Shown piece by piece: positions 4,691 to 28,878 of a DNA stretch of 33,198 nt; position 1 is the stretch's first letter; the number at the start of each line of letters is the position of its first letter. A program made the position numbers and the translations under genes. The DNA lies in contig JBOHQB010000074.1 in NCBI GenBank assembly GCA_050731995.1, positions 1-33,198 of the forward strand, in the 5' to 3' direction. The DNA is from Candidatus Rokuibacteriota bacterium. GTDB taxonomy: Bacteria; Methylomirabilota; Methylomirabilia; Rokubacteriales; CSP1-6. Below the pieces are notes generated by a model. It was not told the origin of the DNA. It made no database searches and worked only from the letters and a program-made list of their open reading frames with translations.

Positions 4691-5136
4691 ACGGGCAGCG
4701 GTGGTTCGAGGACTTCAAGATCGGCGAACGTTTCGCGAGCCCGTCGAAGACGCTGACCGACGCTCACTTCCTCTTCTTCGCCGGCATGACCGGCGACGCC
4801 CACCCCATCCACTATGACGACGAGTACGCGAAGAAGACGCGCTTCGGCCGGCGGCTCGCCCACGGGTTCCTACTGACGTCGCTCACCGCGGTCGGCGCGT
4901 CCACGCTGGCGCCGGTCATCGAGGACTCGATCGTCGCCTTCGTCGAGGCTACGACACGCTTCCGCGCTCCGGCCTTCATCGGCGACACGCTCAAGCCCGA
5001 GCACGAGATCGTCGGGCTCGAACGCAAGCGCTCGGCGGGCCTGCTCACGCTGCGCGTCACCCTCACCAACCAGCGCGGCGAGACGGTCCTCGGGGGCGAG
5101 CACAAGTATCTGATCGCGTATCGCTCGGGCGCATGA
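4687..5136 (+). CDS. MaoC-like (R)-specific enoyl-CoA hydratase / hotdog-fold dehydratase
   Basis: The listed ORF 4315..5136 has an Arg/Pro-rich non-coding-looking N-terminus. An in-frame GTG at 4687 overlaps the dus stop (GTGA). From there the product VNGQRWFEDFKIGERF...GDAHPIHYDDEYAKKTRFGRRLAHGF is a typical single hotdog of 149 aa. Confidence 0.75.
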   Translation: MNGQRWFEDFKIGERFASPSKTLTDAHFLFFAGMTGDAHPIHYDDEYAKKTRFGRRLAHGFLLTSLTAVGASTLAPVIEDSIVAFVEATTRFRAPAFIGDTLKPEHEIVGLERKRSAGLLTLRVTLTNQRGETVLGGEHKYLIAYRSGA

Positions 5137-6458: not shown

Positions 6459-6468
6459 TGGAGGGCTC

Positions 6469-7257: not shown

Positions 7258-10019
7258 AGCGCATCCTGCTCTGGCTCTTCGAGCATCCGGTCGCATCCTG
7301 CGCGGCCGTGCTCGCGGTGACCGTGCTCCTCGGCTGGCAGATCCCCCGGCTCCGGATCGACGACTCGGCCGAGGGGCTGACGGTCGTGAACGACCCCGCC
7401 CGCAGCGTCTACGAGCTTGCCCGGAAGCGCTTCGGGAGCGACAACCTCACGGTCGTCCTCGTCAAGGCCGACGACGTCTTCGCGCCGGCCGTGCTGGCGG
7501 TCGTCCGGCGACTGTCCGACGGCCTCGTCCGGCTGCCGAACGTCAGCCGCGTGGAGAGCCTCACCACCGTCAAGAACATCCGGGGCGAGGGCGACTCGCT
7601 CAACACGGATCTTCTCATCGAGACCCTGCCCCGCACGCCGGAGGAGGTCGAGCGCATCCGCCGCGACGCCCTCGGAACCCGCGTGCTGGTCGGCAACCTC
7701 GTCGCCCGGGACGCCAGGGCCACCGCGATCACCGTGTACGCCGATCCGCGTGCCGACGACCCCGGCTTCAACCATCGTTTCGTCGGTCAGGTTGAGGCGC
7801 TGATCGCACGAGAGACCAAGCCGGGGCTCATCATCTATCAGGTCGGCGGGCCATTCATCAAGACCACGTACGCCGACTACATCACCCGCGATCAGAAGAC
7901 GGTCGTTCCGCTGTCGATCCTGGTGCTGCTCGGCGCCCTCCTGCTCTCGTTCCGGATGCTGCAGGGCGTGGTCATCCCGGTGATCACCGCGATCGTCAGC
8001 ATCGTCTGGGCGCTGGGCCTCATGGTGCTCTTCGACCTGCCGCTGACGATCCTCACCGGGATCATTCCGTCGCTGCTCCTGGCCATCGGCTTCACCGAAG
8101 ACGTGCACATGATCGCCGCGTACCACCATCACCTCGAGAGGGGTCAGGACAAGCTGAGCGCGATCCGGAGCATGCTCGAGGAGGCCGCGCTGCCCATCCT
8201 CGTCACCACCGGCACGACCGTGGTGGGCTTCGGCAGTCTCGTGACGACCGACATCACGATGCTGATCCAGTTCGGCTGGGCGTCGTCGCTCGGTCTCACC
8301 GCGAACTTCGTCGTCACCATGGCCCTGCTGCCGCCGATGCTGCGCTGGTGGAAGGTGCCCCGACGGTTCCGTCGCGCCGCCTTCGAGGACGAGTCCGAGC
8401 ACGGCATGATCCCCCGGCTCATGGAGCGCCTGGCGGAGTTCAACCTGCGATACCGGGTGCCGATCCTCGTCGTCAGCGGGCTCCTCACGGTCGGTTCGCT
8501 GATCGGCTGGTACACGCTGCGCGTCAACACGGACATCGTTAGCTTCTTCCCGGTGAGCTCGCCCGTCCGAACCCGCCTCGAGGACCTGCACCGCTCGATG
8601 TCTGGCGGACTGGCTTTCTACATCGTCGTCGACACGGGGCGCGAGGACGGGGTCAAGGACCCGGCGGTCCTCCGCACGATCGCCGGGCTTCAGGATTTCC
8701 TCGCGTCGACCGGCAAGGTGGACAAGAGCGTGTCGGTCGCCGACTACGTCCGCAAGATGAATCGGGAGATGCACGGTGGGGACCCGGCCTGGGAGACGAT
8801 CCCCGACACGCGCGATCAGGTGGCCCAGTACCTCCTGACCCTGGAGGGGCCGGAACTGGCGAAGTTCCTCGACTTCAACGCCGGGGCGGCGAACATCGTC
8901 GTGCGCCACGATCTCACGGGCTCCGGAGACCTGTCCGCCCTCCTAGGCCAGATCCAGGCCTGGGTGGCCCGGAGCGTCCCGGCCAACGTCAGCGTCAAGC
9001 CGACCGGCGAGGCAATCCTGTTCAACAACGCCTCCGACTTCATGGCGATCAACGAGCTGACCAGCTTCGTCTGGACCTTCATCATCATCGGCCTCATCCA
9101 CGCCGTGCTCTTCATGTCCTTCAAGGCGGGTGCGCTGTCGCTCATCCCCAACGCCGTGCCGATCCTCTTCAACTATGGTGTGATGGGGCTGCTCGGCATC
9201 CCCTTGAACACGAGCAATGCCCTGATCGCGACCATCGCCATCGGGATCGCGGTCGACGACACGGTGCACCACATGGTGACCTACAGCCGTCAGCTGAACC
9301 TCCACCACGATCAGAAGATCGCGATGCTCAACACCATGCGGGCGCAGGGGCGTCCGATCATCTATGTCTCGGTGGCACTGGCGGCCGGCTTCCTCGCGCT
9401 GGTCTTCTCGAGTTTCGTGCCCACGGTACATTTCGGCTGGCTGGCCGCGACCGTCATGCTCCTCGCGATGGTCACCGAGCTGGTGCTCACGCCGATCCTG
9501 ATGTATTCCACCCGCCTGATCACGCTGTGGGACTTGGTGCTCACGCGCATGAATCCCGACGTCGTACGCACGGCGCCGCTCCTCCATGGCCTCTCCCGGT
9601 GGGAGGCACGCAAGGTCGTTCTCCTCGGCCGCCTCGACGAGGTCACGGCCGACGCGCTGATCGTGGGCAAGGGGGAAACGGGCACCGAGATGTACATGAT
9701 CGTGAGCGGCCGCGTGCGCGTCTTCGACCGGCTCTCGAACGGCGCCGAGAAGACGCTCACCATCCTGGGTCCCGGCGAGATCTTCGGCGAGATGGCGCTC
9801 GTGAGCCAGGAGCCGCGCAGCGCCTCGGTCATTGCCGAGATGCCAACCACGGTCCTGCGTCTGGACTTCGAGGCTTTCGAACGGATCCGTCGGCGCTTCC
9901 CCTACACCGGCGCCAAGCTCTTCCGGAACCTCGCGCGCGTGCTGGCCGGTCGCCTGCGCGAGCTGACGGTCGTCGTGGTCGAGGGGGTCCCGCTGGCCGG
10001 AGGCGGCGAGTCTCGCTGA
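7254..10019 (+). CDS. RND-superfamily (MMPL/HpnN-like, COG1033-type) lipid exporter fused to a C-terminal cyclic-nucleotide-binding domain
   Basis: 921 aa. The TTG start overlaps the upstream stop (TTGA). Two internally duplicated halves, each a periplasmic domain plus a TM bundle, carry paired charged TM motifs (AIGFTEDVHMI and AIGIAVDDTVHHM). C-terminal CNB domain is described in the next feature. Confidence 0.85.
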   Translation: MKRILLWLFEHPVASCAAVLAVTVLLGWQIPRLRIDDSAEGLTVVNDPARSVYELARKRFGSDNLTVVLVKADDVFAPAVLAVVRRLSDGLVRLPNVSRVESLTTVKNIRGEGDSLNTDLLIETLPRTPEEVERIRRDALGTRVLVGNLVARDARATAITVYADPRADDPGFNHRFVGQVEALIARETKPGLIIYQVGGPFIKTTYADYITRDQKTVVPLSILVLLGALLLSFRMLQGVVIPVITAIVSIVWALGLMVLFDLPLTILTGIIPSLLLAIGFTEDVHMIAAYHHHLERGQDKLSAIRSMLEEAALPILVTTGTTVVGFGSLVTTDITMLIQFGWASSLGLTANFVVTMALLPPMLRWWKVPRRFRRAAFEDESEHGMIPRLMERLAEFNLRYRVPILVVSGLLTVGSLIGWYTLRVNTDIVSFFPVSSPVRTRLEDLHRSMSGGLAFYIVVDTGREDGVKDPAVLRTIAGLQDFLASTGKVDKSVSVADYVRKMNREMHGGDPAWETIPDTRDQVAQYLLTLEGPELAKFLDFNAGAANIVVRHDLTGSGDLSALLGQIQAWVARSVPANVSVKPTGEAILFNNASDFMAINELTSFVWTFIIIGLIHAVLFMSFKAGALSLIPNAVPILFNYGVMGLLGIPLNTSNALIATIAIGIAVDDTVHHMVTYSRQLNLHHDQKIAMLNTMRAQGRPIIYVSVALAAGFLALVFSSFVPTVHFGWLAATVMLLAMVTELVLTPILMYSTRLITLWDLVLTRMNPDVVRTAPLLHGLSRWEARKVVLLGRLDEVTADALIVGKGETGTEMYMIVSGRVRVFDRLSNGAEKTLTILGPGEIFGEMALVSQEPRSASVIAEMPTTVLRLDFEAFERIRRRFPYTGAKLFRNLARVLAGRLRELTVVVVEGVPLAGGGESR
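9570..10016 (+). other. Cyclic-nucleotide-binding (CAP/PKA-type) domain at the C-terminus of the RND exporter
   Basis: LIVGKGETGTEMYMIVSGRVRV...LGPGEIFGEMALVSQEPRSASVIA. The phosphate-binding cassette has the conserved FGE Glu and RSA Arg, and a hinge helix follows (LDFEAFERIRRRFP). Confidence 0.75.
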
Positions 10020-10020
10020 C

Positions 10021-11379
10021 ATGAACCGGCGCACCGGAGGGACGTGGGACGTGGTGATCGCCGGCGGCGGCGTGGCCGGCGTATCGGTGGCCGCCGCGCT
10101 GGGCGAGTTCGGCTATCGCGTCCTGCTCGTCGAGCCGGGCCTCAACGGCGCCAAGCGGCTCGCCGGCGAGCTGATCCATCCCCCCGGTGTCAGTGACCTC
10201 GCCGACCTCGGGCTGCTGGCGCCGCTCGAGCGGATCGGCGTGGCACCGGTCCTCGGCTTCGCGGTCTCGCCGCACGCGGACGCGGCGCCCTATCTGCTCC
10301 CCTACGGCGCGATCCCCGGCGTCCGGCGCCGTGGTTTCGCGCTGGACCACGCGGTGCTCACCGTCACGCTGTTCGCCGCCGCCAAGCAACTGCCGCACGT
10401 CACGACGTGGCAGGACGCGCGCGTGTGCGACCTGGACCTGACGCCGGACGGCGCGACCGTGCTGATCGCGCGTCCGAACGGTCCGACATCCGTGCGCGCG
10501 CGGCTCGTCGTCGCGGCGGACGGCGGCGCGTCCACCGTACGCCGCCTGGCGTCCATCGCGCACACGCGCGTCCGCCTCTCGCACATGCTCGGCGTGCAGC
10601 TCCCGGGCCCCCTGCCCGAGGCGGGCTTCGGCAACGTGTTCCTCGGCGGCCCCGCCCCGGTGCTCGCGTACGCGATCGACGACGTCACGGCGCGCGTGAT
10701 GTTCGACGTCCCCGGCAACCCCGACGGCATCGCCGCCGTCCGTCGCGATCCCGCGTACCTGGCCGCCCTGCCCCGCGAGTTCCGTGAGCGCGTGCGCGCC
10801 GCCGTCCACGCCGAGCCGGGTCTCGTGTGCGCGAACTACTGCGTCGTTCCCGAGGCGGTCGCCACCGGTTGCGTGGTGCTCGTCGGCGACGCGGCCGGCT
10901 CCTGCCACCCGCTCACGGCTACGGGGCTCAGCGCCTGCACGCGCGACGCGATCCGCCTCCGGCAGGCCCTGCGCGAGGCCGACGGCGACATTCCGCTCGC
11001 GGTCCGCCGCTACGCGCGCGCCCGCGGCGGGCCGCAGCGCACCCGGGTCGCGCTCGCCGAGGCGCTCTACCGGGCCTTCGCCGACCCGTCGGACGAGATG
11101 CGGCTCCTGCGCAACGGAATCTTGAAATTCTGGCAGCGCAGTCGCCGCGGCCGTGCGGCCTCGATGGCGCTCCTCTCCACGCACGAAGGGCGCATGTCGG
11201 TCATGGCGGTGCAATACGCGCGCGTGCTGGGTTACGCGCTCACCGGGCTTGTCCGTCTCCGCGGTGACGGGCGGGCGCGCTCGCCGCTCGCGCGCGCCCG
11301 CGCCGTGATGCGGCTTACCCGCGCGGCCCTCGGCCTGCTCGCGCAGGCGTACAGGGGCCGGCGTCTCCGGCACACCTGA
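10021..11379 (+). CDS. sqmo: Squalene monooxygenase / squalene epoxidase (ERG1/SQLE family flavoprotein)
   Basis: 452 aa. DVVIAGGGVAGVSVAAAL Rossmann motif. GELIHPPG (compare eukaryotic GELLQPGG). VVAADGGASTVRR. VLVGDAAGSCHPLTATGLS (compare GDAxNMRHPLTGGGMT). Starts 1 nt after the RND stop. Confidence 0.8.
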   Translation: MNRRTGGTWDVVIAGGGVAGVSVAAALGEFGYRVLLVEPGLNGAKRLAGELIHPPGVSDLADLGLLAPLERIGVAPVLGFAVSPHADAAPYLLPYGAIPGVRRRGFALDHAVLTVTLFAAAKQLPHVTTWQDARVCDLDLTPDGATVLIARPNGPTSVRARLVVAADGGASTVRRLASIAHTRVRLSHMLGVQLPGPLPEAGFGNVFLGGPAPVLAYAIDDVTARVMFDVPGNPDGIAAVRRDPAYLAALPREFRERVRAAVHAEPGLVCANYCVVPEAVATGCVVLVGDAAGSCHPLTATGLSACTRDAIRLRQALREADGDIPLAVRRYARARGGPQRTRVALAEALYRAFADPSDEMRLLRNGILKFWQRSRRGRAASMALLSTHEGRMSVMAVQYARVLGYALTGLVRLRGDGRARSPLARARAVMRLTRAALGLLAQAYRGRRLRHT

Positions 11380-11393
11380 GCGCCCGTCTCAGG
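11375..11393. terminator. Short hairpin at the convergent operon junction (possible bidirectional terminator)
   Basis: CCTGAG (11375-11380) and CTCAGG (11388-11393) form a 6-bp stem around the 7-nt loop cgcccgt. The stem includes both stop codons (TGA 11377-11379 on plus, TGA 11391-11389 on minus). No U-tract. Confidence 0.2.
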
Positions 11394-13356
11394 CCGCCCG
11401 CGCCGTCGCGCGGTCCGGCCCGGCTTGGCGCGCATAGCGCGCGAGCGCCCAGGCCGGGAAGTAGGCCGAGTACAGCCGATAGTCCAGCATCGCAGTGCCG
11501 AAGAAAACGCCGTTGACGGAGCCGGCGGGCCATCCTCCGTTCGCCTCCTGTCGCGCGCACAGCCAGTCGATGCCCCGCTCGACCGACGCGTGGGTGGCGC
11601 CGACGACGTCGAGCAGTGCGAGCAACGCCCACGCGGTCTGCACCGGCTGGCTGAGGGCGTGCTCGACGTAGCGGTCGTGCAGACATCCCGACCAGTGCTC
11701 CCCCCAGCCGCCGTCCGGACGCTGCCGCGCGACGAGCCACTCGGCGGCGCGAACCAGGGCGAGGTCATCGGCCGCCACGCCGGCGCCGCGCAGCCCCGCG
11801 ACGAAGTGGAAGGCGCCGTACGTGAAATTGATGCCCCACGCTCCCGTGATCGCGCCGTCGACGCGCTGGCTCGCGCGGAGGAATCGAACGCCTCGCTCGA
11901 TCGCCGGCGCGACGCCCGGCACCAAGGTCGGGTCGCGCCGTCCGAGTCGCGCGAGCGCCGACACGCACGAGGCGGTGCATTCGATGTACGAGCGCTCTGT
12001 CATGCAGCGACCGAACATCTCGGACGCGTTGAGCCGCTCGAGCCACGGGCCGCCGCGGCGCGGCTCGTAAGTCCCAAAACCGCCATCGCGGTTCTGGCGG
12101 GCGAGGATGAATCGGGCCGCGAGGGCCAGCCGTGTCGCCGGCGTCCGTTCGGACTGGGGGATGACCGGCTCCGCGCTCAGCAGCGCGCTCACCGCCTCGG
12201 CGGTGCAATCGCTCACCGGCCAGCGATGGACCCCGTCGGAGAAGCACCAGCCGCCCGCGGTCGGCTCGCGGTCCTGCTCTCGCCAACGCGGCAGCTCGCT
12301 CGTGAGCTGCGTGTCGCGCAGGAATCCGTAGCCGCGCCGGACGGCCGCGGCGTGCGCCGGCTCGTCGCCCGTCGTGAGCGCGCGGAGCGCGAAGGCGGTG
12401 TCCCAGGCGTTCGAGCGGGCCCCGGCGTAGCGGATTCCGCCCGCGTCCTCCCAGCGCCAGCCTTCGAGGCCGTCCAGGCTGGCGGCCAGCGCCGGGTCGG
12501 CCGGATCGTGCGCCCACAGCGACAGGCAGTCGAGGACCGCGTTGACCGGCGACAAGCCGAGCCACCGGCTCTCGCGCTGCTCGTAGCGGATGCGATCGAG
12601 GCACGCGTCGAGCGCGCGCCGGCGCAGCCTGACGGGAGTCACGCGGTCCACGCCGGACAGCACCGACGCCGCCACGCGCAGACCGGGGCCCGGACGCACG
12701 TACAGGTCGCTCGCCGCCACGTCGTGGCGGTGGGCCGCGAAGTCGAGGGTCGCGTACGGCTCCGCGTAGAGCTCCTCGCGCAGCGCCGCGCCGAGGGGTC
12801 CGAGGTCGGCGGTGACTCGCCGCCCGTACACATAGGCCACCGCCAGATAGATGTAGCGCGTGTGGCAGTACCAGCGGGCCGGGTGGAACGGGAGGAGCCG
12901 CGGCAACGCGTAGAGCTCGGGCAGCACCGGCGTGACGCCGGCCCAGCCGTAGAGCCCGAGCAGCGCAAGCCAGAGCTTGCCCCACGTGGGGATCGCCAGC
13001 ACGCCGCCCGCCTGTCCCCGCAGCCAGCCGCGCGCGTCGGCGACGAGCGGCTCGTCGCGCTCGAGGCCGAGCAGCCGCAGCGCGACGTACACCAGCGTGG
13101 TGACGAAGACGTACCCCGCCGACTCCGGATGAAGGCCCCACGCGCCGTCGGCCGTTCGCACTCCGCGCAGGTAGCGAACGATCCCCGCACGGGTCGCCGC
13201 GCCGACCGGACGCCCGACGACGTGGCGGACGATGACGACCTGGGCCGTGATCATCGGGCACCACACCACCTCGCCCTCCCAGTCGCCGCGCGGTGACTGC
13301 AGCGTCACGAGGCGGGCGAGGGCGCTATCGCGCGCGGCGGCGGCGGCCGCGAGCAT
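11389..13356 (-). CDS. osc: Oxidosqualene cyclase (lanosterol/cycloartenol/parkeol synthase type terpene cyclase)
   Basis: The listed ORF reaches 13476, but Met41 at 13356 overlaps the upstream stop by 1 nt (TGATG), giving 655 aa. OSC-type catalytic motif WPVSDCTAEA at 12196-12222, not the SHC-type DxDDTA. Multiple QW repeats (RFLRASQRVDGAITGAWG, EWLVARQRPDGGWGE, DWLCARQEANGGWP, FILARQNRDGGFG). Confidence 0.9.
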   Translation of the reverse strand: MLAAAAAARDSALARLVTLQSPRGDWEGEVVWCPMITAQVVIVRHVVGRPVGAATRAGIVRYLRGVRTADGAWGLHPESAGYVFVTTLVYVALRLLGLERDEPLVADARGWLRGQAGGVLAIPTWGKLWLALLGLYGWAGVTPVLPELYALPRLLPFHPARWYCHTRYIYLAVAYVYGRRVTADLGPLGAALREELYAEPYATLDFAAHRHDVAASDLYVRPGPGLRVAASVLSGVDRVTPVRLRRRALDACLDRIRYEQRESRWLGLSPVNAVLDCLSLWAHDPADPALAASLDGLEGWRWEDAGGIRYAGARSNAWDTAFALRALTTGDEPAHAAAVRRGYGFLRDTQLTSELPRWREQDREPTAGGWCFSDGVHRWPVSDCTAEAVSALLSAEPVIPQSERTPATRLALAARFILARQNRDGGFGTYEPRRGGPWLERLNASEMFGRCMTERSYIECTASCVSALARLGRRDPTLVPGVAPAIERGVRFLRASQRVDGAITGAWGINFTYGAFHFVAGLRGAGVAADDLALVRAAEWLVARQRPDGGWGEHWSGCLHDRYVEHALSQPVQTAWALLALLDVVGATHASVERGIDWLCARQEANGGWPAGSVNGVFFGTAMLDYRLYSAYFPAWALARYARQAGPDRATARAA

Positions 13357-14429
13357 CAGGAGTGCGCGGGTGCGGCGCCCGCCAAATACTCCTCCCACTT
13401 CTTCACGGTGAGCTGCTGGAAGAGGCCGACCGCCGGGTTGAGGTCGGGCACCGGCCGATCGTGGTGCGTCTCCCACCCGCGCTGCTCGGCCTCCACGGCG
13501 AAGCCGTCCTGGGCGAGCAACGGGTGGATGAGGACCCGGTTGGAGATCCGGAGCACGAGCGTCATCAGCCGACGTGGGATGCGGAGTGGCGTGAGCGGGA
13601 TCCTGAGCGATTCAAAATAGAAGAGGAAAAACGTCCGGGTCGTGCTCTCGTCGATCGGCAGGAAGAAGCACCAGTGCTTGATCTTGCCGTCCGTGTTCGA
13701 CCACTGGTACGGGTACTCGTAGCAGAGATCCATCGCGTTCGTATTCACACGACGCCGGTCCACGAACAGTCCCGAGATCCGGCCGCGCCCGACGCGCGTA
13801 TCGTAGGAGACGTGGACGGCGTCGCCGACCCGCTCGCAGCGGGTGAGCCGCGCGTCCTCGAACGGCCGGTATTTGCGGTGCAGCCACGCATGGGTGAAAT
13901 CGCTCACGTTGTCGACGACCATCGAGTGGTGCGCACGCCACGTGAAGTCGAGCGGCACGCACGCCCAGCGCCCGGGGTCCTCGAGCTCCGGGATATCGGG
14001 AATCGATCGACGGTCGGCCCGCGCGGGATCGCCCGGGTAGACCCAGACGAGGCCGTAGCGCGCCTTCACGGGGTACGTGCGCAGCGTGACCTTCGGCAAC
14101 GGGCGGCCGAACAGCTCGTGAGGCACGTGCGCGAGTCGGCCGGTCCCATCGTACGCCCAGCCATGATAGGCGCACGTCAGCCGGCAGTCCTCCACGCTGC
14201 CGAGCGTCAGCTTCAGCTGACGGTGGGCGCAGCGGTTCTCGACCGCGTGGAGCGCGCCGTCTTCGTCGCGCCACAGCGCGATCGACTGCCCCCAGAACTG
14301 AGTCTCGACGACGGCGCCGGGTTGCACCGCGCGGTCGTACTCGACCGCGTACCAATAGTCCGGATGCAGGCCGGCCGCGCGGGCCTTCTCGCGCAGGTTG
14401 CGCGCCTCGGCGAACGACGGGCCGCTCAC
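13356..14429 (-). CDS. Rieske [2Fe-2S] non-heme-iron oxygenase, SdmA-like (candidate sterol C-4 methyl oxidase), paralogue 2
   Basis: The 661-aa listed ORF is an artefactual 5' extension. The GTG at 14429 overlaps the upstream stop (GTGA) and aligns with the Met start of the paralogue, giving 357 aa. Rieske motif CAHRQLKLTLGSVEDCRLTCAYHGW. Mononuclear-iron motif DNVSDFTHAWLH. Confidence 0.8.
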   Translation of the reverse strand: MSGPSFAEARNLREKARAAGLHPDYWYAVEYDRAVQPGAVVETQFWGQSIALWRDEDGALHAVENRCAHRQLKLTLGSVEDCRLTCAYHGWAYDGTGRLAHVPHELFGRPLPKVTLRTYPVKARYGLVWVYPGDPARADRRSIPDIPELEDPGRWACVPLDFTWRAHHSMVVDNVSDFTHAWLHRKYRPFEDARLTRCERVGDAVHVSYDTRVGRGRISGLFVDRRRVNTNAMDLCYEYPYQWSNTDGKIKHWCFFLPIDESTTRTFFLFYFESLRIPLTPLRIPRRLMTLVLRISNRVLIHPLLAQDGFAVEAEQRGWETHHDRPVPDLNPAVGLFQQLTVKKWEEYLAGAAPAHS

Positions 14430-15496
14430 GCCGGAACCCCGGCGGACCCGGCCCGGGCCAGGTGCGCCTCCCACTTCCGAATGGTGAGCCGGTGGAGCAG
14501 GGCGACGGCCGGATTCAGCTCGACGAGGGGCGCGTCCCAGTGGGCCTCGTAGCCGCGCTGCTCCGCTTCCAGCGCCACGCGGTCCTGATCGAGGAGCGAG
14601 CGTACGAACGGCTGGATCGCGGCGAGGACCCACCGGAGGGCCCGGTGCGGCGGCGACACCGGCAGCCCCGGCACGCGGAGCCGGTCGTAGGCCATCACGA
14701 AGAAAACGCGCGTGGTGCGGACGTCCATCGGCAGCAGAAACGTCCAGTACCTGATCTGCCCGCGGATGCCCGACCACTCGAACGCCGCCCAATGGTACGG
14801 GTACTCGAAACATATCGTCATCGGTGACGGAGCCACGTCGTGCCGCACGCGGGGCCCCACCTTCGCCTCGTAGCGCAGGAGGACGCGGTCGTCCGTGGCG
14901 TCCCAGTCGAGCAACCGCCCCGGCTGGAACGACGCGAACCTCCGGTGCAGGTGCGCGTGCGTCAGATCGCAGAGGTTGTCCATCACCATCGAGTGATGCG
15001 CGCGCCACGTGAAGTCGATCGGCACATACGCCCACGGTTCGGAGCCCTCGAGCACCGGCACCTCCGGCAGCGGGACGCGCGCGGCCAGCGTGGGGTCGCC
15101 CGGGAAGATCCAGATCAACCCGTAGCGCTCGAGGACGGGATAGTGGCGGATGTGCACGGACGGCATCGAGTGCCCGAACCGGTCGTGGGGCACGTCCACG
15201 AGCCGTCCGGCGTCGTCGTACGTCCAGCCGTGATAGGCGCAGGCCAGGCGGCAGCCCTCCACGCTGCCGAGCGAGAGCGGCAGCTGGCGATGGGCGCAGC
15301 GGTCCTCGAGCGCGTGCACGCGGCCGTCGGTATCCCGCCACAGGACGATGGCCGCGCCCCAGAACGAGGTGGCGCGGATCGCGCGCAGCGGCAGCCTGCG
15401 CTCGTATTCGACCGCATACCAGTGATTCGGATCGAGCCCGGCCGCGCGGACCTTCTGGCGCAAGCCGACGGCGTCGGCGAACGCCGGCGGCGTCAT
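14426..15496 (-). CDS. Rieske [2Fe-2S] non-heme-iron oxygenase, SdmA-like (candidate sterol C-4 methyl oxidase), paralogue 1
   Basis: The ATG at 15496 overlaps the CYP51 stop (ATGA), giving 356 aa. CAHRQLPLSLGSVEGCRLACAYHGW and DNLCDLTHAHLH motifs. Collinear with the downstream paralogue along its whole length. Confidence 0.8.
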   Translation of the reverse strand: MTPPAFADAVGLRQKVRAAGLDPNHWYAVEYERRLPLRAIRATSFWGAAIVLWRDTDGRVHALEDRCAHRQLPLSLGSVEGCRLACAYHGWTYDDAGRLVDVPHDRFGHSMPSVHIRHYPVLERYGLIWIFPGDPTLAARVPLPEVPVLEGSEPWAYVPIDFTWRAHHSMVMDNLCDLTHAHLHRRFASFQPGRLLDWDATDDRVLLRYEAKVGPRVRHDVAPSPMTICFEYPYHWAAFEWSGIRGQIRYWTFLLPMDVRTTRVFFVMAYDRLRVPGLPVSPPHRALRWVLAAIQPFVRSLLDQDRVALEAEQRGYEAHWDAPLVELNPAVALLHRLTIRKWEAHLARAGSAGVPA

Positions 15497-16881
15497 GACG
15501 GAACCGCCGTCAGCGCAGGCGCTGTCACCGTCACACGGAGGCGCCGGCGGTAGCGCACGATGCACGGTGGCCGGGGCCCGACGACGAACGTCGAGTAGTC
15601 CGGGCGGTGGCCGGTGCGCACCGGCGTGAGGTCGAAGCGCCGGAGCAGCACCGACCAGATGACCTTGATCTGCTGCTCGGCAAAGGTCGAGCCGATGCAG
15701 CGGTGGTGTCCGCCGCCGAAGCCGATCAGCGCGTGCTTCACGGCGCGATCCTCCTGCCGCCCGGGACCGAAGCGATCGGGATCGTACCGATCGGGATCGC
15801 GAAAGACCCCGGCGATTCGGTGGCCGGCGGCCGGCGAGACCATCGCCAGATCGCCAGCGGGGACGATGTACTCGCCGTACGCGATCTCGCGGAGGACCCG
15901 TCGCATGAGCATGACGAGCGGCGGATGCATCCGCTCGGCCTCCTTGATGCACCGCTCCAGCGCGACCAGCCGCCGCAGCGCCGCCAGGTCCACGATCCGC
16001 CCGTCGGGCAGCACCTCGCGCTGCTCGGCCAGCACGGCGGGCAGGTGCTCGGGGTGCTCGAGCAGCAGCAGGCCGGTCCAGACGCTCATGATCGCGCTCG
16101 TGTGCTGGCCGGCGAAGATGGTCCCGAGCAGGAGGCCCGTGATCTCGTCGTCGGAGAGCGGCCGGCCGTCGCTGTAGCGGGCGGCCATGAGCGTCTGGAG
16201 GAAGTCCTCTCCTTCGACCCCGCGTTCGCGCCGCTCAGCGATGACGCCGGCGATCAGGGCCGCCACCTGCGCCCGGGCACGGTCGCGGCGGCGGAAGGCC
16301 GGCAGCGGCAGATGCGGGTTGAAGAACGCGATCAGGTTGATGCCGCGCTCGAGGTCATGATAGAGGTGCGCGAACTCCTGCGTCACCCGCCGCCGCATCT
16401 CGTCGCCGATGAGGCATCTCGTGGCGATGAACACCGTCAGCTCGTTCATCGCCACGGCCAGGTCGATCTCTCCGGCGTCGCCCCACGTATCGGTGTACGC
16501 CTCGGTCTCCTCCTGCATGACGCGCGCGTACGTCCGCAGGCGGTCGTCGCGCAGCGCGGGGAAGAGAAAGCCCATCTGCTCGTCGAAGACCGGCGGCGTC
16601 GCATCGTAGACCACGCCACGGCCAAAGATGGGCACGGTGAACCGATAGACCTCGCGCGCGCTCAGCTGGTCCTCGGGTGCGCCGAAGAACGCCGCGTGCG
16701 CGCGCGGTCCCAGGAAGGCCGTCACCCGCGTCCCCGGAAGGCGGAACGAGAACAGGTCGCCGAATCGCGCGTGCCCGTCCCGGAGGAGGCGGGCCGGGTC
16801 GCGCCGGAGCGCCGGCGCATGGCCGAGGAGCGGCCAGCCGCCGGACAGCATTGGGGGACGCCGATTGCGATGGGCGCTCAC
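15493..16881 (-). CDS. cyp51: Cytochrome P450 sterol 14-alpha-demethylase (CYP51 family)
   Basis: 462 aa. CYP51 signatures are present: FGRGVVYDA (B'-C region), helix I FAGQHTS, ExxR (EAER) and heme-Cys loop FGGGHHRCIG. ATGA overlap with the upstream SDR stop. Confidence 0.9.
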   Translation of the reverse strand: MSAHRNRRPPMLSGGWPLLGHAPALRRDPARLLRDGHARFGDLFSFRLPGTRVTAFLGPRAHAAFFGAPEDQLSAREVYRFTVPIFGRGVVYDATPPVFDEQMGFLFPALRDDRLRTYARVMQEETEAYTDTWGDAGEIDLAVAMNELTVFIATRCLIGDEMRRRVTQEFAHLYHDLERGINLIAFFNPHLPLPAFRRRDRARAQVAALIAGVIAERRERGVEGEDFLQTLMAARYSDGRPLSDDEITGLLLGTIFAGQHTSAIMSVWTGLLLLEHPEHLPAVLAEQREVLPDGRIVDLAALRRLVALERCIKEAERMHPPLVMLMRRVLREIAYGEYIVPAGDLAMVSPAAGHRIAGVFRDPDRYDPDRFGPGRQEDRAVKHALIGFGGGHHRCIGSTFAEQQIKVIWSVLLRRFDLTPVRTGHRPDYSTFVVGPRPPCIVRYRRRLRVTVTAPALTAVPS

Positions 16882-17876
16882 GCCCGCGGACCGATCTTGC
16901 CGCGCCTCACGAAGTCCTCGTACGCATCGCGCACGGCATCCTCGACGGAGGTCGGCTGGTACCCGAGCTCCGTGCGCGCCTTGGTGATATCGGCGCGTCG
17001 GTGCATTCGGAGGATTCGGACCGCGCCAGGCGTGAAGCGCGGCTCCACATCAGGGGCGAGTCGGCGCACGAAGAAGTCGAGCATCTCGGCCAGACCGGCC
17101 ATCAGGGGCGGCGGCACCCGCAACCGCGGCCGGGGCCGCCCGGTGACACGCTCGTACATCGCCATCAGCTCGTCGACCGTCTTGAACTCGGTCGAGAAGA
17201 TGTATTTCTGGCCGCTTCGCCCCTTGTCCATCGCCAGCAGGTGCCCCTGAACGATGTCGCGCGCGGCGACGAACTCGAAGCCGCCCGGGACATACGCGCG
17301 CAGTCGTCCGCGCGCGAAGTCGAGGAGCAGCTGGCCCATCCGCGACGGCTTGAAGTCGTGCGGGCCCAGGATGGCGCACGAGGTCGCGATGACGACGTCG
17401 AGACCGTCCACGACGGCCTTGAGGCATTCGTGCTCCACCGCCACCTTGCTGCGCTGGTAGGGCAGCAGCGGCGCGAACGGATCGACCGGCACCGTTTCGT
17501 CGCTCGGCCGGAGCGGATCGTGGCCGACCGCGCTGAAGGAGCCGGTAACGACGACGCGCTCGACCCCCGCGTCGAGCGACGCGCGGAGCAGATGACGCGT
17601 GCCGAGCACGTTGCAGGCGTAGATCTCTTTCTGCTGGCCTTCGGCGCTCGAGACCTTGGCCGCGCAGTGGTAGACGCGCTCGCAGCCGCGGACCGCAGCC
17701 CGCGTCTCACCCGCGTCGCGAAGATCGCCCCAGACGGTCTCGACGTCGAGGCCGGCCAGCGCCTCGACGGAGGCGTGAGATCGTTCGAGAACCCTGACCT
17801 CCTGGCTCTCGTCGAGAAGGCGTCGGACCAGGTTCGCGCCGAGATGCCCACTGCCGCCCGTCACGAGCACGCGCAT
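16878..17876 (-). CDS. NAD(P)-dependent epimerase/dehydratase / 3-beta-hydroxysteroid dehydrogenase family protein (SdmB-like, candidate C-4 decarboxylase/3-ketoreductase partner)
   Basis: 332 aa. VLVTGGSGHLGANLV Rossmann motif and catalytic YQRSK (YxxxK). Extended-SDR length. First gene of a five-gene overlap-coupled operon. Confidence 0.8.
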   Translation of the reverse strand: MRVLVTGGSGHLGANLVRRLLDESQEVRVLERSHASVEALAGLDVETVWGDLRDAGETRAAVRGCERVYHCAAKVSSAEGQQKEIYACNVLGTRHLLRASLDAGVERVVVTGSFSAVGHDPLRPSDETVPVDPFAPLLPYQRSKVAVEHECLKAVVDGLDVVIATSCAILGPHDFKPSRMGQLLLDFARGRLRAYVPGGFEFVAARDIVQGHLLAMDKGRSGQKYIFSTEFKTVDELMAMYERVTGRPRPRLRVPPPLMAGLAEMLDFFVRRLAPDVEPRFTPGAVRILRMHRRADITKARTELGYQPTSVEDAVRDAYEDFVRRGKIGPRA

Positions 17877-18247: not shown

Positions 18248-19528
18248 TCACAGGCGCTGCGGCTCGGTCACGGGGACGGGCCCGCGCCACCACAGTCGAA
18301 TCATCTCGCCCAGGATCGGGAGCGCCACGCGCGGCCTCAGGAATGTGCGCTTCGGACGCGCGCCGGTCATGGCCTCCGCCCACTCGAGCAGGAATTCGGT
18401 GCCGCGCCGGCGCATGAGCGCCGCACAGCCGTCGAGAAAGGCGGGATAGCGCGCGGAGGCCGCCGCCATCGCCCAGGACCAGCGGAAGTCCCACCCGAAC
18501 GACGCCATCCAGCGATCCTGATACCGCTGGAGAAACGCCGCGCTGAGGTCGTGGGCCTCGAGCGCCTCGTCGAGTGTCTGGGCGGCGATCTCGCCTCCAT
18601 CCATCGCGTACTGGATGCCCTCACCCGTCAGCGGGTCGATGTGACCGGCGGCGTCGCCGATGACGAGCATGTGGTCGCCGACGCTCTGCGGCACGCCGCC
18701 GAGACGGAGCGGCGCCGCGCGCATCGGTGCCAGACGCGCGCGAGGACCGAGAGCCCGGTTGACGTACGGGTCGCCTCGCACGATCTTGTCGTGGAGCCGC
18801 TTGAGGTCGCGAAGCCCCGCCTGGCCGCCGGGAATCACGTAGCAGCACAGGTTCAGCTCTCCGCCGGCCTCCCGGAACAGCACGCAGTATCCGGGCAGAA
18901 GCTCGCGTGGATAGAACATGACGCCGTCCGAAGCGAAGTCCGTCGTGCCGGCCTCGACGTACGCGCGGCTGCACACGCCGTCGGGCGCCGTCGTCACGAC
19001 ACCGAGTGAGCGCGCGAGACGCGCGAGAGCGCCGTCCGCCGTCACCAGCGCCCGGGCCTCGTACGTCGTGGCCGGCTGCGTCGCGCAGCGCACAGTCCAC
19101 ACGCCCGAGCCCGGAGCGAAGTCGGCGCCGGCGACCGGTGAATCTTCAACGAGCGTCGCACCGGCGGAGGCCGCTGCGCGCGCCAAGCGCACATCGAGCG
19201 CGACGCGCTTGATCGCGATCACGAGCGGGCGTCGCCCGTCCTCCACCGAGCTGCCGATGTAGGCGACTCCGCGCGGACTGACGAAGCCGCCGATCTCGGC
19301 CCAATGGCCTTCGCCCGCGGCGAGCACGTCGGCCAGCACCCCCATCCGCTCGAGGTGGACCTGCGCCCGTCCGGTGACGGCGTCGCCGCAGAGCTTGTCC
19401 CGCGGGAAGCGCTCACGCTCCAGGAGCAAAACGCGCCGGCCACGGCCGGCGAGATAGTACGCGCACGTGGAGCCGGCGGGGCCGGCGCCGACGATACAGA
19501 CATCCCACGGCGACGCGGGGGCGACCAT
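18248..19528 (-). CDS. FAD-dependent oxidoreductase, geranylgeranyl reductase (GGR) family
   Basis: WDVCIVGAGPAGSTCAYYLA Rossmann motif. RERFPRDKLCGDAV (GGR-type Cys). GDAAGHIDPLTGEGIQYAM. An AGGA SD lies 5 nt before the ATG at 19528. An in-frame GTG at 19531 is an alternative start. Confidence 0.8.
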   Translation of the reverse strand: MVAPASPWDVCIVGAGPAGSTCAYYLAGRGRRVLLLERERFPRDKLCGDAVTGRAQVHLERMGVLADVLAAGEGHWAEIGGFVSPRGVAYIGSSVEDGRRPLVIAIKRVALDVRLARAAASAGATLVEDSPVAGADFAPGSGVWTVRCATQPATTYEARALVTADGALARLARSLGVVTTAPDGVCSRAYVEAGTTDFASDGVMFYPRELLPGYCVLFREAGGELNLCCYVIPGGQAGLRDLKRLHDKIVRGDPYVNRALGPRARLAPMRAAPLRLGGVPQSVGDHMLVIGDAAGHIDPLTGEGIQYAMDGGEIAAQTLDEALEAHDLSAAFLQRYQDRWMASFGWDFRWSWAMAAASARYPAFLDGCAALMRRRGTEFLLEWAEAMTGARPKRTFLRPRVALPILGEMIRLWWRGPVPVTEPQRL

Positions 19529-19573
19529 CACGTTCCTGTCTAACGTATCCGGCGTGCGCTGTCCATGACGTCC

Positions 19574-20584
19574 TCAGTAGAGGAACGGAACCATCCGCCA
19601 GCGGACACGCTCACAGTACGCGGCCCACAGCGCGCCGTACTTTTGGCGGCAGCGACGGTCGTCGCGCCGGGCGCGGTGGAGGAAGAAGAAGGTCAGCCAG
19701 AGCGCGGGCAGGTACGGCACCGGTGACGCAAGCCCGCACGGCAGCGTCCACGCATAGTAGAGGATCAGCTCGCCGGTGTAGTTGAGCTTGCGGCCGATAC
19801 CCCAGAACCCCGAGACGAGCAGCCGGCCGCCGATCGTCTCCGGCGGCCGCCGCCAGACCGGCGCGGACGGGTCGAGCTTGAACTGGTGCTTCTGCGCGTT
19901 GGCGCCCCGGAAGAGCCAGAAGCCGAACACGTACATGGCGATGAGCCCGACGGCGGCCGGGAGCGACGGCGGGCTCACCCGGTCGACAAGATACCATCCG
20001 GGCAGGCTGTAGAAGAACGGTACCAGGACCCAGTCGCCCCAGACGAGGGCCCAGCCGAAGCGCTCCTCCAGGACATCCCAGGTGAAGCGCATCCCGTGCT
20101 CGAAGTGGAAGTAGTTCGCGACGTAGAGCAGCGTGAACGCCTCGAACAGCAGCATGGGAGTCGCCAGGCGGCCGTGGCGCTCCCACTGGGCGAAGGCGAA
20201 GCCGAGGTTGACGAGGCCGAGCGCGATCAGCGACGGGCGGTAGGCGAACATTTTGAGATCGACTCCGCGCCACACCGGAGCACGCTCCACGCCATAGAAG
20301 AAATCGAGGGCCGCCTCGCGAAGGCCGCCCTCGAGGAGGCCGCGTCCCTGGGCCCACCGGCCGCACGCGTAGAGGAGGCCGGCCGACGCGAGGGCAAGCA
20401 CGTTGGCGGCGACGAGCAGCGCGCCGAAGTGACGAATGATAGCCGACGGCGACCAGATCCCGACGGCGACGGTCGCGGCGACGGCGGCGGCCGCCACGCC
20501 GAGCAGTCGGAGCCCGCTCAGCCCGTAGCCCGAGGCCACGAAGAGCGCGCCGACGAATCCCACCACCGCCAGCGCGGCGATCAT
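19574..20584 (-). CDS. ERG4/ERG24-family sterol reductase (most plausibly Delta14-sterol reductase)
   Basis: The N-terminal 118 aa of the listed 454-aa ORF overlap the EBP-like gene out of frame and look non-coding. The ATG at 20584 overlaps the EBP-like stop (ATGA), giving 336 aa. Family signatures GIGRKLNYTGELILYYAW and FFLHRARRDDRRCRQKYGALWAAYCERVRWRMVPFLY are present. Multi-TM. Confidence 0.85.
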   Translation of the reverse strand: MIAALAVVGFVGALFVASGYGLSGLRLLGVAAAAVAATVAVGIWSPSAIIRHFGALLVAANVLALASAGLLYACGRWAQGRGLLEGGLREAALDFFYGVERAPVWRGVDLKMFAYRPSLIALGLVNLGFAFAQWERHGRLATPMLLFEAFTLLYVANYFHFEHGMRFTWDVLEERFGWALVWGDWVLVPFFYSLPGWYLVDRVSPPSLPAAVGLIAMYVFGFWLFRGANAQKHQFKLDPSAPVWRRPPETIGGRLLVSGFWGIGRKLNYTGELILYYAWTLPCGLASPVPYLPALWLTFFFLHRARRDDRRCRQKYGALWAAYCERVRWRMVPFLY

Positions 20585-21090
20585 GCTCGCGGACTCGCGA
20601 AGCGTCGGACGATCGCCGTGAAGGCGTCCCAGGCCAGCCAGGCGTGCGCGGCGAGCCACGGCAGCGTCAGGCCGTAGAAAAGCGTGAACCCCGTCGCGGT
20701 GCGCGCGCGCATCCCCGCGTAGCCGCTGAGATGACCGGCCAGCAGGTAGAGGATGCACGAGTACGCGACGTAGGCGCCGAGCGCCAGCTGCAGCGCGTGG
20801 CGCCAGGGCGCACCGCGCAGGATGCCAGCGATGAGGACGATGTTCACGAGCGTCGTCACGAAGACGTTGAACCCTTCTTGCGCGAGCGACCAGGGCGAGG
20901 CGATCCAGAACCGGTCCGCGTCGGCATAAAGGGCCCACAGGTCCGCGGCCCAGTCGGAGCCCACGAGTTGAGGCAGATCACGCCCACGCCGGACCAGCGC
21001 CCAGTCGAGCGTCACGTTGAAAGCGGAGAAGAACAGGAGCAGCCCGATACTGACGCGATCCCGCGTAGCGAGCGAGGCCGCGGCCGGCAT
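20581..21090 (-). CDS. EBP/EXPERA-family small membrane protein (candidate sterol Delta8-Delta7 isomerase)
   Basis: 169 aa from the ATG at 21090 (in-frame GTG at 21093). By eye it is collinear with human EBP: LWALYADADRFWIASPWSLAQEGFNVFV...APWRHALQLALGAYVAYSCILYLL against [28 protein letters not shown]...[24 protein letters not shown]. It lacks the first TM of the eukaryotic protein. Confidence 0.6.
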   Translation of the reverse strand: MPAAASLATRDRVSIGLLLFFSAFNVTLDWALVRRGRDLPQLVGSDWAADLWALYADADRFWIASPWSLAQEGFNVFVTTLVNIVLIAGILRGAPWRHALQLALGAYVAYSCILYLLAGHLSGYAGMRARTATGFTLFYGLTLPWLAAHAWLAWDAFTAIVRRFASPRA

Positions 21091-21097
21091 CACGCCG

Positions 21098-22198
21098 TCA
21101 GTCCGAGCGGCCGCGTGCGGCGATCTCCCACACGGCCTCGACCCCGTCGCCCCGGACGGCGTAGATCCGATCGTAGAGGTTGATCGTCGGATCGCAGTGG
21201 GGCGCGAAGAACTCGATCCGCTCGCCGAGCCGCGGCGCGCGCGAGGGATCGGTGATCGTGAGCCGGCCGTGCTCGTCGCCCGCAAAGGCGTACTCGATCC
21301 CCGGACGCTCGACCGACTCGGGTGGGAACGGCTTGTCGGTGGAGAACGCTTTCAGGCCCGCGTCCACCATCGCGCGGTCGCGCGTGGGGATGCTGACGAC
21401 CGTGGCGACGACGGTCAGCGCCATCTCGAAGCCGGTGAGCCACTGCCCGTCGCGTCCGCCGATACGCCGATAGTCGAGGTCCATGACGCAGTAGGACCCG
21501 CTCTGGAGCTCGGTGAGCGCGGCGAGCTCGACGTCGATGTCCCAGGTGCCCGTGGAGCCGCCGGCGACGACCTCGACGGGCAGTCCCGCCGCCTCGAAGA
21601 GGCGCCGGGTCTCCGCGAGCGGCGCCATCGCCACGCGCGACGCCTCACGACGCTGCTCCCAGCCGATGACGTGGGCGCAGTGCCCCGCGTACGCCTGCAG
21701 CCCGCGCAGCCGGAGCGCCTTGCGCGCGACGACGGCGCGGCCCAGCGCCACCGCGGGCTCGCCGGGGTCGACGCCGGTCCGCCGGTTGCCGACGTCGAGA
21801 TCCACCAGCACGTCGATCGTCACGGCGTCGCGCTCGGCGGCGGCCGCCAGCGCCGCGACGTTCTCGGCGTGGTCCACGACGACCATCGTGTCGGGCGCCT
21901 CGGCGACGAGGCGCGTGAGGCGGCGGAGCGCCTGCGGGGCCACGACCTCGGTCGTGATCAGAAGACCCCGGATCCTGGCGCGCGCCATCACCTCCGCCTC
22001 GCCGAGCTTCGCGCACGCGACGCCGAGGGCGCCGGCGGCGATCTGGCGGCGCGCGATCTCCGGGCACTTGTGGGTCTTGGCGTGCGGCCGGAGATTCTTG
22101 CCGGCGCGGCGCACGTGCGCGGCCATCGCGGCCAGATTCCGCTCGAAGCGGTCGAGATCGAGCAGCAGCGCCGGGGTCGGAATCTCGTCGCGGGTCAT
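21098..22198 (-). CDS. DSD1-family PLP-dependent enzyme (D-threonine aldolase / D-serine dehydratase-like, alanine-racemase-fold)
   Basis: 366 aa. PTPALLLDLDRFERNL start block. PLP-lysine motif RPHAKTHK. C-terminal GDEHGRL...PHCDPTINLYD block. Its stop is 7 nt before the EBP-like start. Confidence 0.8.
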   Translation of the reverse strand: MTRDEIPTPALLLDLDRFERNLAAMAAHVRRAGKNLRPHAKTHKCPEIARRQIAAGALGVACAKLGEAEVMARARIRGLLITTEVVAPQALRRLTRLVAEAPDTMVVVDHAENVAALAAAAERDAVTIDVLVDLDVGNRRTGVDPGEPAVALGRAVVARKALRLRGLQAYAGHCAHVIGWEQRREASRVAMAPLAETRRLFEAAGLPVEVVAGGSTGTWDIDVELAALTELQSGSYCVMDLDYRRIGGRDGQWLTGFEMALTVVATVVSIPTRDRAMVDAGLKAFSTDKPFPPESVERPGIEYAFAGDEHGRLTITDPSRAPRLGERIEFFAPHCDPTINLYDRIYAVRGDGVEAVWEIAARGRSD

Positions 22199-26482: not shown

Positions 26483-26542
26483 CCGGTTGCCGGGGCGAGG
26501 ACCCCGTGCTAGAAACGCTCATTCCCCGCGAGGAGGCGGACG

Positions 26543-27748: not shown

Positions 27749-27749
27749 C

Positions 27750-28868: not shown

Positions 28869-28878
28869 GCCCCGCCCC

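Follow-up and report, generated by a model that had tools for sequence, protein, structure and literature searches.

A 33 kb stretch of Candidatus Rokuibacteriota DNA (contig JBOHQB010000074.1, approximately 70% G+C; hereafter the window) carries two adjacent genes for Rieske/non-heme-iron oxygenases, A and B, inside a sterol gene cluster, and represents a variant of the known SdmAB sterol demethylation module. On sequence evidence, B is the orthologue of canonical single-copy SdmA, a 4-methylsterol oxidase, and A is a member of an old and previously undescribed clade of SdmA paralogues specific to Rokubacteria/Methylomirabilota. By orthology, B and the only SdmB-like short-chain dehydrogenase/reductase (SDR) of the cluster would remove the C-4 methyl group(s) from the lanosterol-type product of the adjacent cyclase. 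A would perform a second, different sterol oxygenation with a remodelled substrate pocket, as a step of an extended pathway that includes an EBP-type isomerase and a geranylgeranyl-reductase-type (GGR-type) enzyme, and would share mixed rings with B. For this reading taken as a whole, we see the chances for and against as balanced.

The gene pair and its family

Five minus-strand genes lie head to tail in the order SDR-CYP51-A-B-OSC, each joined to the next by overlapping stop and start codons (GTGA at SDR/CYP51, ATGA at CYP51/A, GTGA at A/B and TGATG at B/OSC). By homology they encode an SdmB-like SDR of the 3beta-hydroxysteroid dehydrogenase (3beta-HSD)/epimerase family (16878..17876), a cytochrome P450 that is a candidate CYP51-type sterol 14-demethylase and overlaps each neighbour by 4 nt (15493..16881), the oxygenases A (15496..14426, 356 aa, ATG start) and B (14429..13356, 357 aa, GTG start), and an oxidosqualene cyclase (OSC; 11389..13356), the start of which overlaps the stop of B. 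The GTGA at 14426..14429 holds the stop codon of A and the start codon of B and suggests translational coupling. In the five frames the G+C content at third codon positions (GC3) is 0.80-0.95, and dN/dS values of 0.1-0.3 against orthologues indicate that A and B are real, selected genes.

A first-pass annotation of this DNA had described two oxygenases of about 356 aa, joined head to tail by a GTGA overlap, with Rieske and iron motifs kept in both, divergence concentrated in the C-terminal half and a single SDR partner, and our analysis bears out each of these points. The pairwise comparison that it had proposed gives 51% identity over the full length (BLASTP, 67% positives, E=6e-129). Both proteins match the Pfam families Rieske (PF00355) and VanA_C (PF19112) and have all cofactor ligands, with C67-x-H69...C86-x-x-H89 in each. 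The [2Fe-2S] ligand motif of A reads C67-A-H69...C86-A-Y-H89 (15230..15298, minus strand) and that of B lies at 14163..14231, on the same strand. Residues 173-184 form the mononuclear-iron motif, which is DNLCDLTHAHLH in A (14945..14980) and DNVSDFTHAWLH in B (13878..13913). H180 and H184 of A align with the iron ligands H160 and H165 of dicamba O-demethylase (DdmC), D177 is the putative bridging Asp, and D305 (14582..14584), which is invariant in our alignments, is the putative carboxylate ligand of the iron, as judged from the DdmC family. Identity between A and B is 58-61% over residues 1-160 but 43-45% over residues 161-356, and all indels between the two fall within this C-terminal, catalytic half. 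Besides 17876..16878 the 33 kb contain no second SDR gene; neither a beta-subunit (small-subunit) oxygenase gene nor a small Rieske ferredoxin or reductase, for which we searched, was found in the window.

Both oxygenases have the SdmA model NF052579 as their best NCBIfam match (402.5 bits for B, 314.5 bits for A), each under the 600-bit cut-off of a model that is named for, and tuned to, Methylococcales. The SDR likewise has the SdmB model NF052578 as its best match (340.7 bits, cut-off 600 bits). We used A to scan species-representative genomes and metagenomes, and searched each fetched locus (numbered with the prefix L) again with A and B. B is 53-68% identical to the lone SdmA-like gene that adjoins an SdmB-like SDR in methanotrophs, Nannocystis/Enhygromyxa, Arenicellales, cyanobacteria, Streptomyces and Gemmataceae, reaching 64% with the SdmA of Calothrix sp. 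NIES-4105 (L112), 60% with that of an Enhygromyxa metagenome-assembled genome (MAG; L125) and 56% with that of a Methylococcus MAG (L041), whereas A shares 43-51% identity with the canonical SdmA proteins of the same groups. The window SDR is 55-63% identical to the SDRs adjoining SdmA in methanotrophs and Calothrix. In neighbour-joining (NJ) trees B falls inside the canonical SdmA clade, together with the characterised Methylococcus, Calothrix NIES-4105 and Enhygromyxa/Nannocystis lineages; the monophyly of this clade against clade A has weak support. An SdmB-type SDR and the sterol core genes are encoded with B in the overlap-joined run. The first-pass annotation had treated the two genes as tandem SdmA-like paralogues: family membership stands for both, equivalence does not, B being the SdmA orthologue and A part of a separate, lineage-specific clade.

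An AlphaFold2 model (pLDDT 85.8) has the fold of a Rieske domain followed by a helix-grip catalytic domain. By sequence and fold the nearest solved structures are DdmC, GxtA/SxtT, guaiacol O-demethylase and NdmA, which are the top Foldseek matches. DdmC, the closest of them, is an alpha3 enzyme without a beta subunit and matches with a template modelling (TM) score of 0.73-0.79 at 19-26% sequence identity; the spacing of the histidine ligands is H-x3-H in A and B and H-x4-H in DdmC, and the substrates differ. A and B thus probably fit the alpha3 Rieske monooxygenases without beta subunit (DdmC/VanA type), as far as modelling and fold comparison can tell.

KshA (3-ketosteroid 9-alpha-hydroxylase) and Neverland/DAF-36 are steroid-acting Rieske oxygenases, and one could suppose that both window genes encode catabolic enzymes of the KshA or aromatic-ring type that lie in the locus by chance. 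The JGI name of many homologues, 'phenylpropionate dioxygenase-like', is in line with this. However, the best family match of both proteins is SdmA, as the first-pass annotation had anticipated, rather than a KshA-type or aromatic-ring group. In addition, among the loci recovered with A, the SdmA-like gene usually sits beside an SdmB-like SDR, CYP51, OSC and squalene epoxidase where the flanks suffice. KshA is, like the window oxygenases as predicted here, a Rieske enzyme acting on steroids, but it is a distant match: it aligns over the Rieske and iron-motif region (N-terminal half) only (E=3.6e-13), has a fold rank >40 and is far weaker than DdmC. We therefore rejected the catabolic explanation, which we hold to be extremely improbable.

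Clade A and its gene context

The best 120 database matches comprise 54 A-type and 66 B-type protein clusters at 90% identity. A-type proteins share DNLCDLTHAHLH and two indels of the catalytic domain, a 7-aa deletion (after KVGP in the window copy) and a 5-aa insertion (in the window copy HWAAF, after YPY); the B-type signature is DNVSDFTHAxLH. Clade A has bootstrap values of 0.75-0.87 in the NJ trees and, with indels and an active-site signature of its own, stands as a clade separate from characterised SdmA rather than among its orthologues. Rooting with the nearest non-SdmA relatives (L057 and L058, 30% identity) gave an outgroup branch of approximately 1.2 and bootstrap values of 0.27-0.56 for the monophyly of B; given this long branch and low support, NJ does not distinguish a position of A inside SdmA from one as the sister group of all SdmA.

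All eight species-representative genome records that carry A bear the label Rokubacteria, Rokuibacteriota, Methylomirabilia or Methylomirabilota. One further NCBI record, labelled Candidatus Acidoferrum, holds an A that lacks the Rieske ligands and is 83-88% identical to Rokubacteria copies. No database record matches the window A protein exactly. The contig closest to the window is L157 (WNGH01006949.1), with 85-89% amino-acid identity and a shared gene order. B is present in all 29 A-bearing loci with enough sequence and lies directly downstream of A in 25, the usual order being SDR-CYP51-A-B-OSC; the eight A-bearing loci in which B is missing are all fragments no longer than 4.1 kb. Across 20 loci the pairwise A-A and B-B distances are correlated (r=0.91, Mantel p<=2e-4), with A diverging about 1.3 times as much as B (mean distance 0.318 vs 0.240). 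This correlation argues that the duplication is older than the radiation of these lineages and that the two genes have travelled together.

Many closely related clusters (L107, L120, L184, L190, L194, L205, L222 and L235) read SDR-CYP51-B-OSC, with a B 72-78% identical to that of the window and no A at the junction, which means that A was either lost or inserted at the CYP51/B boundary. Their available sequence shows neither EBP nor a GGR-type reductase. A second SdmA-like gene is also found in three alphaproteobacterial/proteobacterial MAGs (L113, 16810-18866; L131, 16724-18852; L149, 9494-11559), where it has the motif DNLSDLTH[AG]YLH and 49-51% identity to B, and is flanked by two EBP-like genes and then ERG24; L113 and L131 also have a GGR-type reductase. 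We considered these paralogues as members of clade A and rejected them, because they form their own clade (bootstrap 0.96) apart from A in the NJ tree, at a poorly supported position.

Our literature search found no published description of duplicated SdmA, of clade A or of Rieske-less SdmA-like proteins, and the supplements of PMC10202945 hold nothing on duplicated SdmA or Rokubacteria sterol genes. There is a brief general mention of Rieske and Rossmann genes near OSC in Rokubacteria (PMC7306690). How bacteria make sterols matters for the origin of the eukaryotic pathway and for the reading of sterane biomarkers. Three bacterial ways of C-4 demethylation have been published, the methanotroph SdmAB, E. 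salina SdmABC and Calothrix SdmAB systems, each with a single oxygenase (PMC10202945). A conserved module of two oxygenases and one SDR in a widespread soil lineage would either add a fourth arrangement or bring to light a bacterial tailoring enzyme that has been missing so far.

The sequences of clade A point to selection for function. Between close relatives, A evolves with a dN/dS of 0.18-0.22 and B with one of 0.10-0.19, and D173, N174, D177, H180, H184 and D305 are invariant in 29 A-type sequences, so that A is under purifying selection with a complete catalytic iron site and is predicted to be catalytic. We counted as fixed differences those alignment columns that are at least 85% conserved in each clade with differing residues, and placed pocket sites by sequence landmarks and the DdmC alignment. 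Of the 15 such columns, 11 fall within the catalytic sheet (residues 161-283), where three (L175, C176 and L178) flank the iron ligands, and residues 1-135 contain none; 108 columns are conserved identically in A and B. As read from these alignments, the pattern is that of an active site that has changed while the electron-transfer scaffold has not. A redundant or decaying SdmA duplicate without distinct function might also evolve faster than B, as A does by the factor given above, and might lose its Rieske domain, which is eroding in part of the clade. Against this stand the dN/dS of about 0.2, found in the Rieske-less members as well, the invariant iron ligands, the age and diversification of the clade (54 protein clusters at 90% identity) and the fixation of clade-specific active-site residues. 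On these grounds we rejected redundancy, to which we assign only a very small chance.

The gene content of A-bearing loci is richer than that of their relatives. When A-bearing loci of at least 9 kb are compared with closely related A-less loci, raw counts show a GGR-type reductase in 10/13 of the former and 0/17 of the latter, and EBP in 8/13 and 1/17, respectively. In L085 and L162, A overlaps or abuts EBP. In the window, the genes for the GGR-type enzyme (18248..19531), a short ERG4/ERG24-family sterol reductase (19574..20560) and an EBP/EXPERA-family protein, a candidate sterol delta8-delta7 isomerase (20581..21285), lie upstream of the SDR-CYP51-A-B-OSC run on the same strand; all three assignments rest on homology. 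The GGR-type enzyme belongs to the geranylgeranyl-reductase family of flavin adenine dinucleotide (FAD) enzymes and scores above the cut-off of TIGR02032, and relatives occur in Calothrix NIES-4105 (L112, 58%) and in alphaproteobacterial sterol clusters. It is conceivably a non-homologous sterol side-chain delta24 reductase.

Rieske-less relatives and a probable mixed A/B ring

At 90% identity the proteins of the monophyletic sister clade of window A fall into 18 clusters, with as many as 45 members in some. In the ten loci that we examined, nested in-frame deletions of approximately 33-53 aa remove all four [2Fe-2S] ligands, and the proteins retain the basal beta-sandwich of the Rieske domain as well as D177, H180, H184 and D305. 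They evolve with an omega (dN/dS) of 0.19-0.22. In 10/10 loci the gene immediately downstream of the Rieske-less A is a B whose Rieske domain is intact, and a small Rieske ferredoxin gene was found in none of the ten. The combination of a kept catalytic domain, lost cluster ligands and a Rieske-bearing partner gene alongside is found, for example, in L081, L088, L089 and P0009 (with its neighbour at L082, 10001-12069); window A itself keeps its ligands. Closer to the window, A of L157 (6001-7041) has a 7-residue in-frame deletion between CxH and CxxH, and in the window sub-lineage omega is 0.25 for the N-terminal/Rieske part of A vs 0.12 for the rest in a single pairwise comparison, a contrast that B and another A lineage do not have.

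In alpha3 Rieske oxygenases (DdmC, NDO and KshA classes), the cluster of one subunit reduces the iron of the neighbouring subunit. Given that the Rieske-less A proteins keep their iron site, have a dN/dS of about 0.2 and are always encoded directly upstream of B, they point to a mixed A/B oligomer in which the cluster of B feeds A. Probably, then, A and B form mixed rings and A can use the cluster of B. In such a ring the cluster of B would drive the iron of A, as an option in the window and as an obligation in the sister clade, where electron transfer from B to the Rieske-less A is the probable route by analogy with the alpha3 enzymes. The first-pass annotation had anticipated neither the Rieske-less clade nor such a complex.

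The literature that we searched describes a single system with an oxygenase that has lost its cluster, NdmCDE, in which the reductase NdmD, assisted by a glutathione S-transferase (GST)-like protein, provides the cluster for NdmC (PMC4408171). The Rieske-less relatives of A resemble NdmC in being encoded with a cluster-bearing partner, and NdmA is a fold neighbour of A (identity approximately 21-22%). Unlike in NdmCDE, where the donor is a reductase and not a paralogous oxygenase, an NdmD-like partner was not seen in the Rokubacteria loci, and the adjacent paralogue B is the likely donor.

NdmCDE is nonetheless a precedent for another arrangement, in which A and B would be independent homotrimers and the Rieske-less A would be fed by another Rieske carrier, as NdmC is by NdmD (PMC4408171). 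We consider this rather unlikely. Neither the window nor any of the ten Rieske-less loci yielded a small Rieske gene, and the invariable position of the Rieske-less A immediately upstream of B speaks against separate enzymes. Moreover, what the Rieske-less proteins keep of the Rieske domain, the basal beta-sandwich, is its ring-contact part, and the absence of fixed A/B differences in the Rieske domain is compatible with interchangeable packing.

Several observations nevertheless weigh against the reading proposed at the outset, and the first two of them favour homotrimers. The A and B genes lie several kb apart in L002, L085, L171 and L197, so that tight coupling is not universal. Small Rieske ferredoxin genes are present in the clusters of L001, L083, L084 and L086; in three of these, a gene of 100 aa stands beside ERG24 (L083, 3885-4187; L086, 4034-4333; L001, 5261-5560). 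Thus, separate Rieske donors exist in some relatives, in the L001/L083/L086 sub-lineage borne by the cluster itself, and this ferredoxin may be an electron carrier for the oxygenases. The mixed oligomer, for its part, is read from gene order, co-inheritance and the Rieske-less clade. The placement of clade A relative to clade B has bootstrap values <0.6, by NJ only, and the counts that associate EBP and the GGR-type reductase with A are uncorrected for shared ancestry.

Possible reactions of A and neighbouring genes

The SdmA/SdmB pair of Methylococcus capsulatus is a 4-beta-methylsterol monooxygenase and an SDR (Lee et al. 2018, as cited in PMC10202945), and the window resembles it in having a Rieske/VanA_C oxygenase beside an SdmB-like SDR in a sterol cluster; compared with the Methylococcus locus L041, B is 56% identical to SdmA and the window SDR approximately 59% identical to the L041 SDR. 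Unlike M. capsulatus, the window has two oxygenases, both below the NCBIfam cut-off, and in addition EBP, ERG24 and a GGR-type reductase. In Calothrix sp. NIES-4105 (L112), as in the window, CYP51, OSC and a GGR-type reductase (58%) are clustered, with an SdmA and an SdmB at 64% and 63% identity, but an A-type paralogue is missing from Calothrix, whose only Rieske gene besides its one SdmA is very distant (23% identity). Enhygromyxa salina, with SdmA, SdmB and SdmC, is another variant of SdmAB made by duplicating one component (PMC10202945). There the SDR is duplicated (SdmB/SdmC, 51%); in the window it is the oxygenase (A/B, 51%), with one SDR.

Two reactions of A are sub-cases of the reading that we prefer, in which A carries out a second sterol oxidation, and we rate them nearly level. 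In the first, labour would be divided at C-4: B would act on the 4-beta methyl, as happens in Methylococcus, and A on the remaining 4-alpha methyl, with the single SDR decarboxylating and reducing in both rounds, so that both methyls are removed. The first-pass annotation had proposed one oxygenase per C-4 methyl; the idea is weakened by the finding that a single SdmA handles both methyls elsewhere, and we keep it as a tentative option. A is the nearest paralogue of the C-4 methyl oxidase, with 108 identical conserved sites against 15 switched ones, its changes are concentrated near the iron, where a slight shift in regiochemistry would be expected to leave them, and it is translationally coupled within the SDR-CYP51-A-B run. 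Plant SMO1 and SMO2 are paralogues that each oxidise one of the C-4 methyls, with the second acting after later nucleus steps; they are membrane di-iron enzymes of the fatty-acid-hydroxylase family, unrelated to Rieske oxygenases. GxtA and SxtT, which are among the top fold matches of the window oxygenases, are paralogues that hydroxylate different positions of one scaffold. Position-specific pairs are on record in NdmA/NdmB of Pseudomonas putida CBB5, paralogous Rieske monooxygenases that each act on a different methyl of one scaffold (PMC4408171), and in the plant SMO pair (cited in PMC10202945). Additionally, the related A-less clusters are without EBP and GGR-type reductase, as if their pathway stopped earlier.

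However, a second oxygenase, though it may still take part, is not required for didemethylation, since a single one was enough for both methyls in the published systems: the SdmA of E. salina supports removal of both with SdmB and SdmC, and that of Calothrix with SdmB alone (PMC10202945). When E. salina SdmA was combined with Methylococcus SdmB, one methyl was removed, and in such E. salina/M. capsulatus swaps the number removed is set by the SDRs supplied, not by the oxygenase (PMC10202945). Given the identity of B and the window SDR to the Calothrix proteins (64% and 63%, as above), B and the SDR may already remove both methyls.

In the second sub-case, A would have been neofunctionalised to a nucleus reaction other than at C-4, most attractively as a Rieske-type desaturase that introduces the C-5(6) double bond into the delta7 sterol from EBP, which we regard as possible at best. 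The first-pass annotation had named another oxidation, at C-5/C-6 or on the side chain, as its alternative, and we put this on a par with its main idea. In eukaryotes C-5(6) desaturation is the work of ERG3/SC5D, and neither the window nor the four A-bearing contigs with Pfam calls, to which the scan was confined, showed an ERG3/fatty-acid-hydroxylase-type desaturase gene. A co-occurs with EBP, to which it is coupled or adjacent in L085 and L162, and the independent second SdmA-like paralogue of Alphaproteobacteria sits between two EBP-like genes. A single SdmA also suffices for both methyls elsewhere. Some A-bearing clusters hold a second ERG4/ERG24 paralogue that could be a delta7 reductase. 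In some relatives (L081, 2408-3703; L082, 6226-7521; also L087, L089, L159 and L117) this second paralogue is 431 aa long, 34-35% identical to the window copy and transcribed divergently from the SDR. It fits the structure of the Methylomicrobium delta14-sterol reductase better than the short window copy does, and a sequence search of the PDB with both paralogues returned delta14-sterol reductases only, which leaves DHCR7-like and delta14 enzymes undistinguished; the comparison hence did not show the second paralogue to be DHCR7-like. The window, L001, L083 and L086 have no second ERG4/ERG24 within the available sequence, and Streptomyces, Elusimicrobia and several proteobacterial clusters have EBP without an A-like gene, which speaks against a C-5 desaturase. 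Rieske sterol desaturases exist in animals (Neverland/DAF-36), but we know of no precedent for a Rieske enzyme at C-5, and this lack counts against the assignment.

A side-chain or other reaction of A appears improbable; for the side chain, the reason is that most of the pocket is conserved with SdmA. It is somewhat less improbable, though still doubtful, that A has no distinct reaction (as a redundant copy or a non-catalytic partner) or does something that we have not considered. We are similarly reserved about the strongest form of the proposal, a mixed two-site A/B ring, obligatory in the sister clade, in which the [2Fe-2S] cluster of one paralogue drives the iron of the other and A is a new bacterial sterol enzyme (for example a Rieske C-5 desaturase or a 4-alpha-methyl oxidase). 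If this form is true, soil Rokubacteria would have clustered genes for making fully tailored sterols (lathosterol-, 7-dehydrocholesterol- or cholesterol-like) by chemistry not homologous to the eukaryotic steps.

On the plus strand next to the cyclase gene, and by homology as for the following genes, lie a squalene epoxidase (10021..11379) and, beyond it, three more genes. The product of one weakly resembles DUF1302 (5133-6458), that of the next is LolA-like/DUF1329 (6469-7257), and the third encodes an RND/MMPL transporter (7254-10019) that combines a sterol-sensing domain with a cyclic nucleotide monophosphate (cNMP)-binding domain at its C terminus. This set (5133-10019) probably serves sterol export or trafficking under cNMP control. 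The RND-cNMP transporter gene is also found beside the cluster in L083, L086, L088 and L157. A second cNMP-linked component, encoded in related sterol clusters of Rokubacteria, is a cytochrome P450 fused to, or followed by, cNMP-binding domains (L083, 18929-21080; L002, 11419-13953, minus strand).

A different elaboration of the SdmAB module is found in the cyanobacterial sterol clusters L093 and L101 (Amazonocrinis and Nostoc sp. NIES-4103), which have three SdmB-like SDR genes (62%, 56% and 56% identity) as well as several very distant Rieske and P450 genes. Elsewhere in the window, plus-strand genes at 25643-30806 encode a weak MaoC-like protein, two acyl-CoA dehydrogenases, a family III CoA-transferase and an enoyl-CoA hydratase, a set that resembles fatty-acid or steroid-side-chain beta-oxidation; no link to the sterol cluster has been established. 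Finally, a class I S-adenosylmethionine (SAM)-dependent methyltransferase (UbiE/COQ5-like) is encoded at 2701-3483 on the plus strand, 7 kb from the sterol genes.

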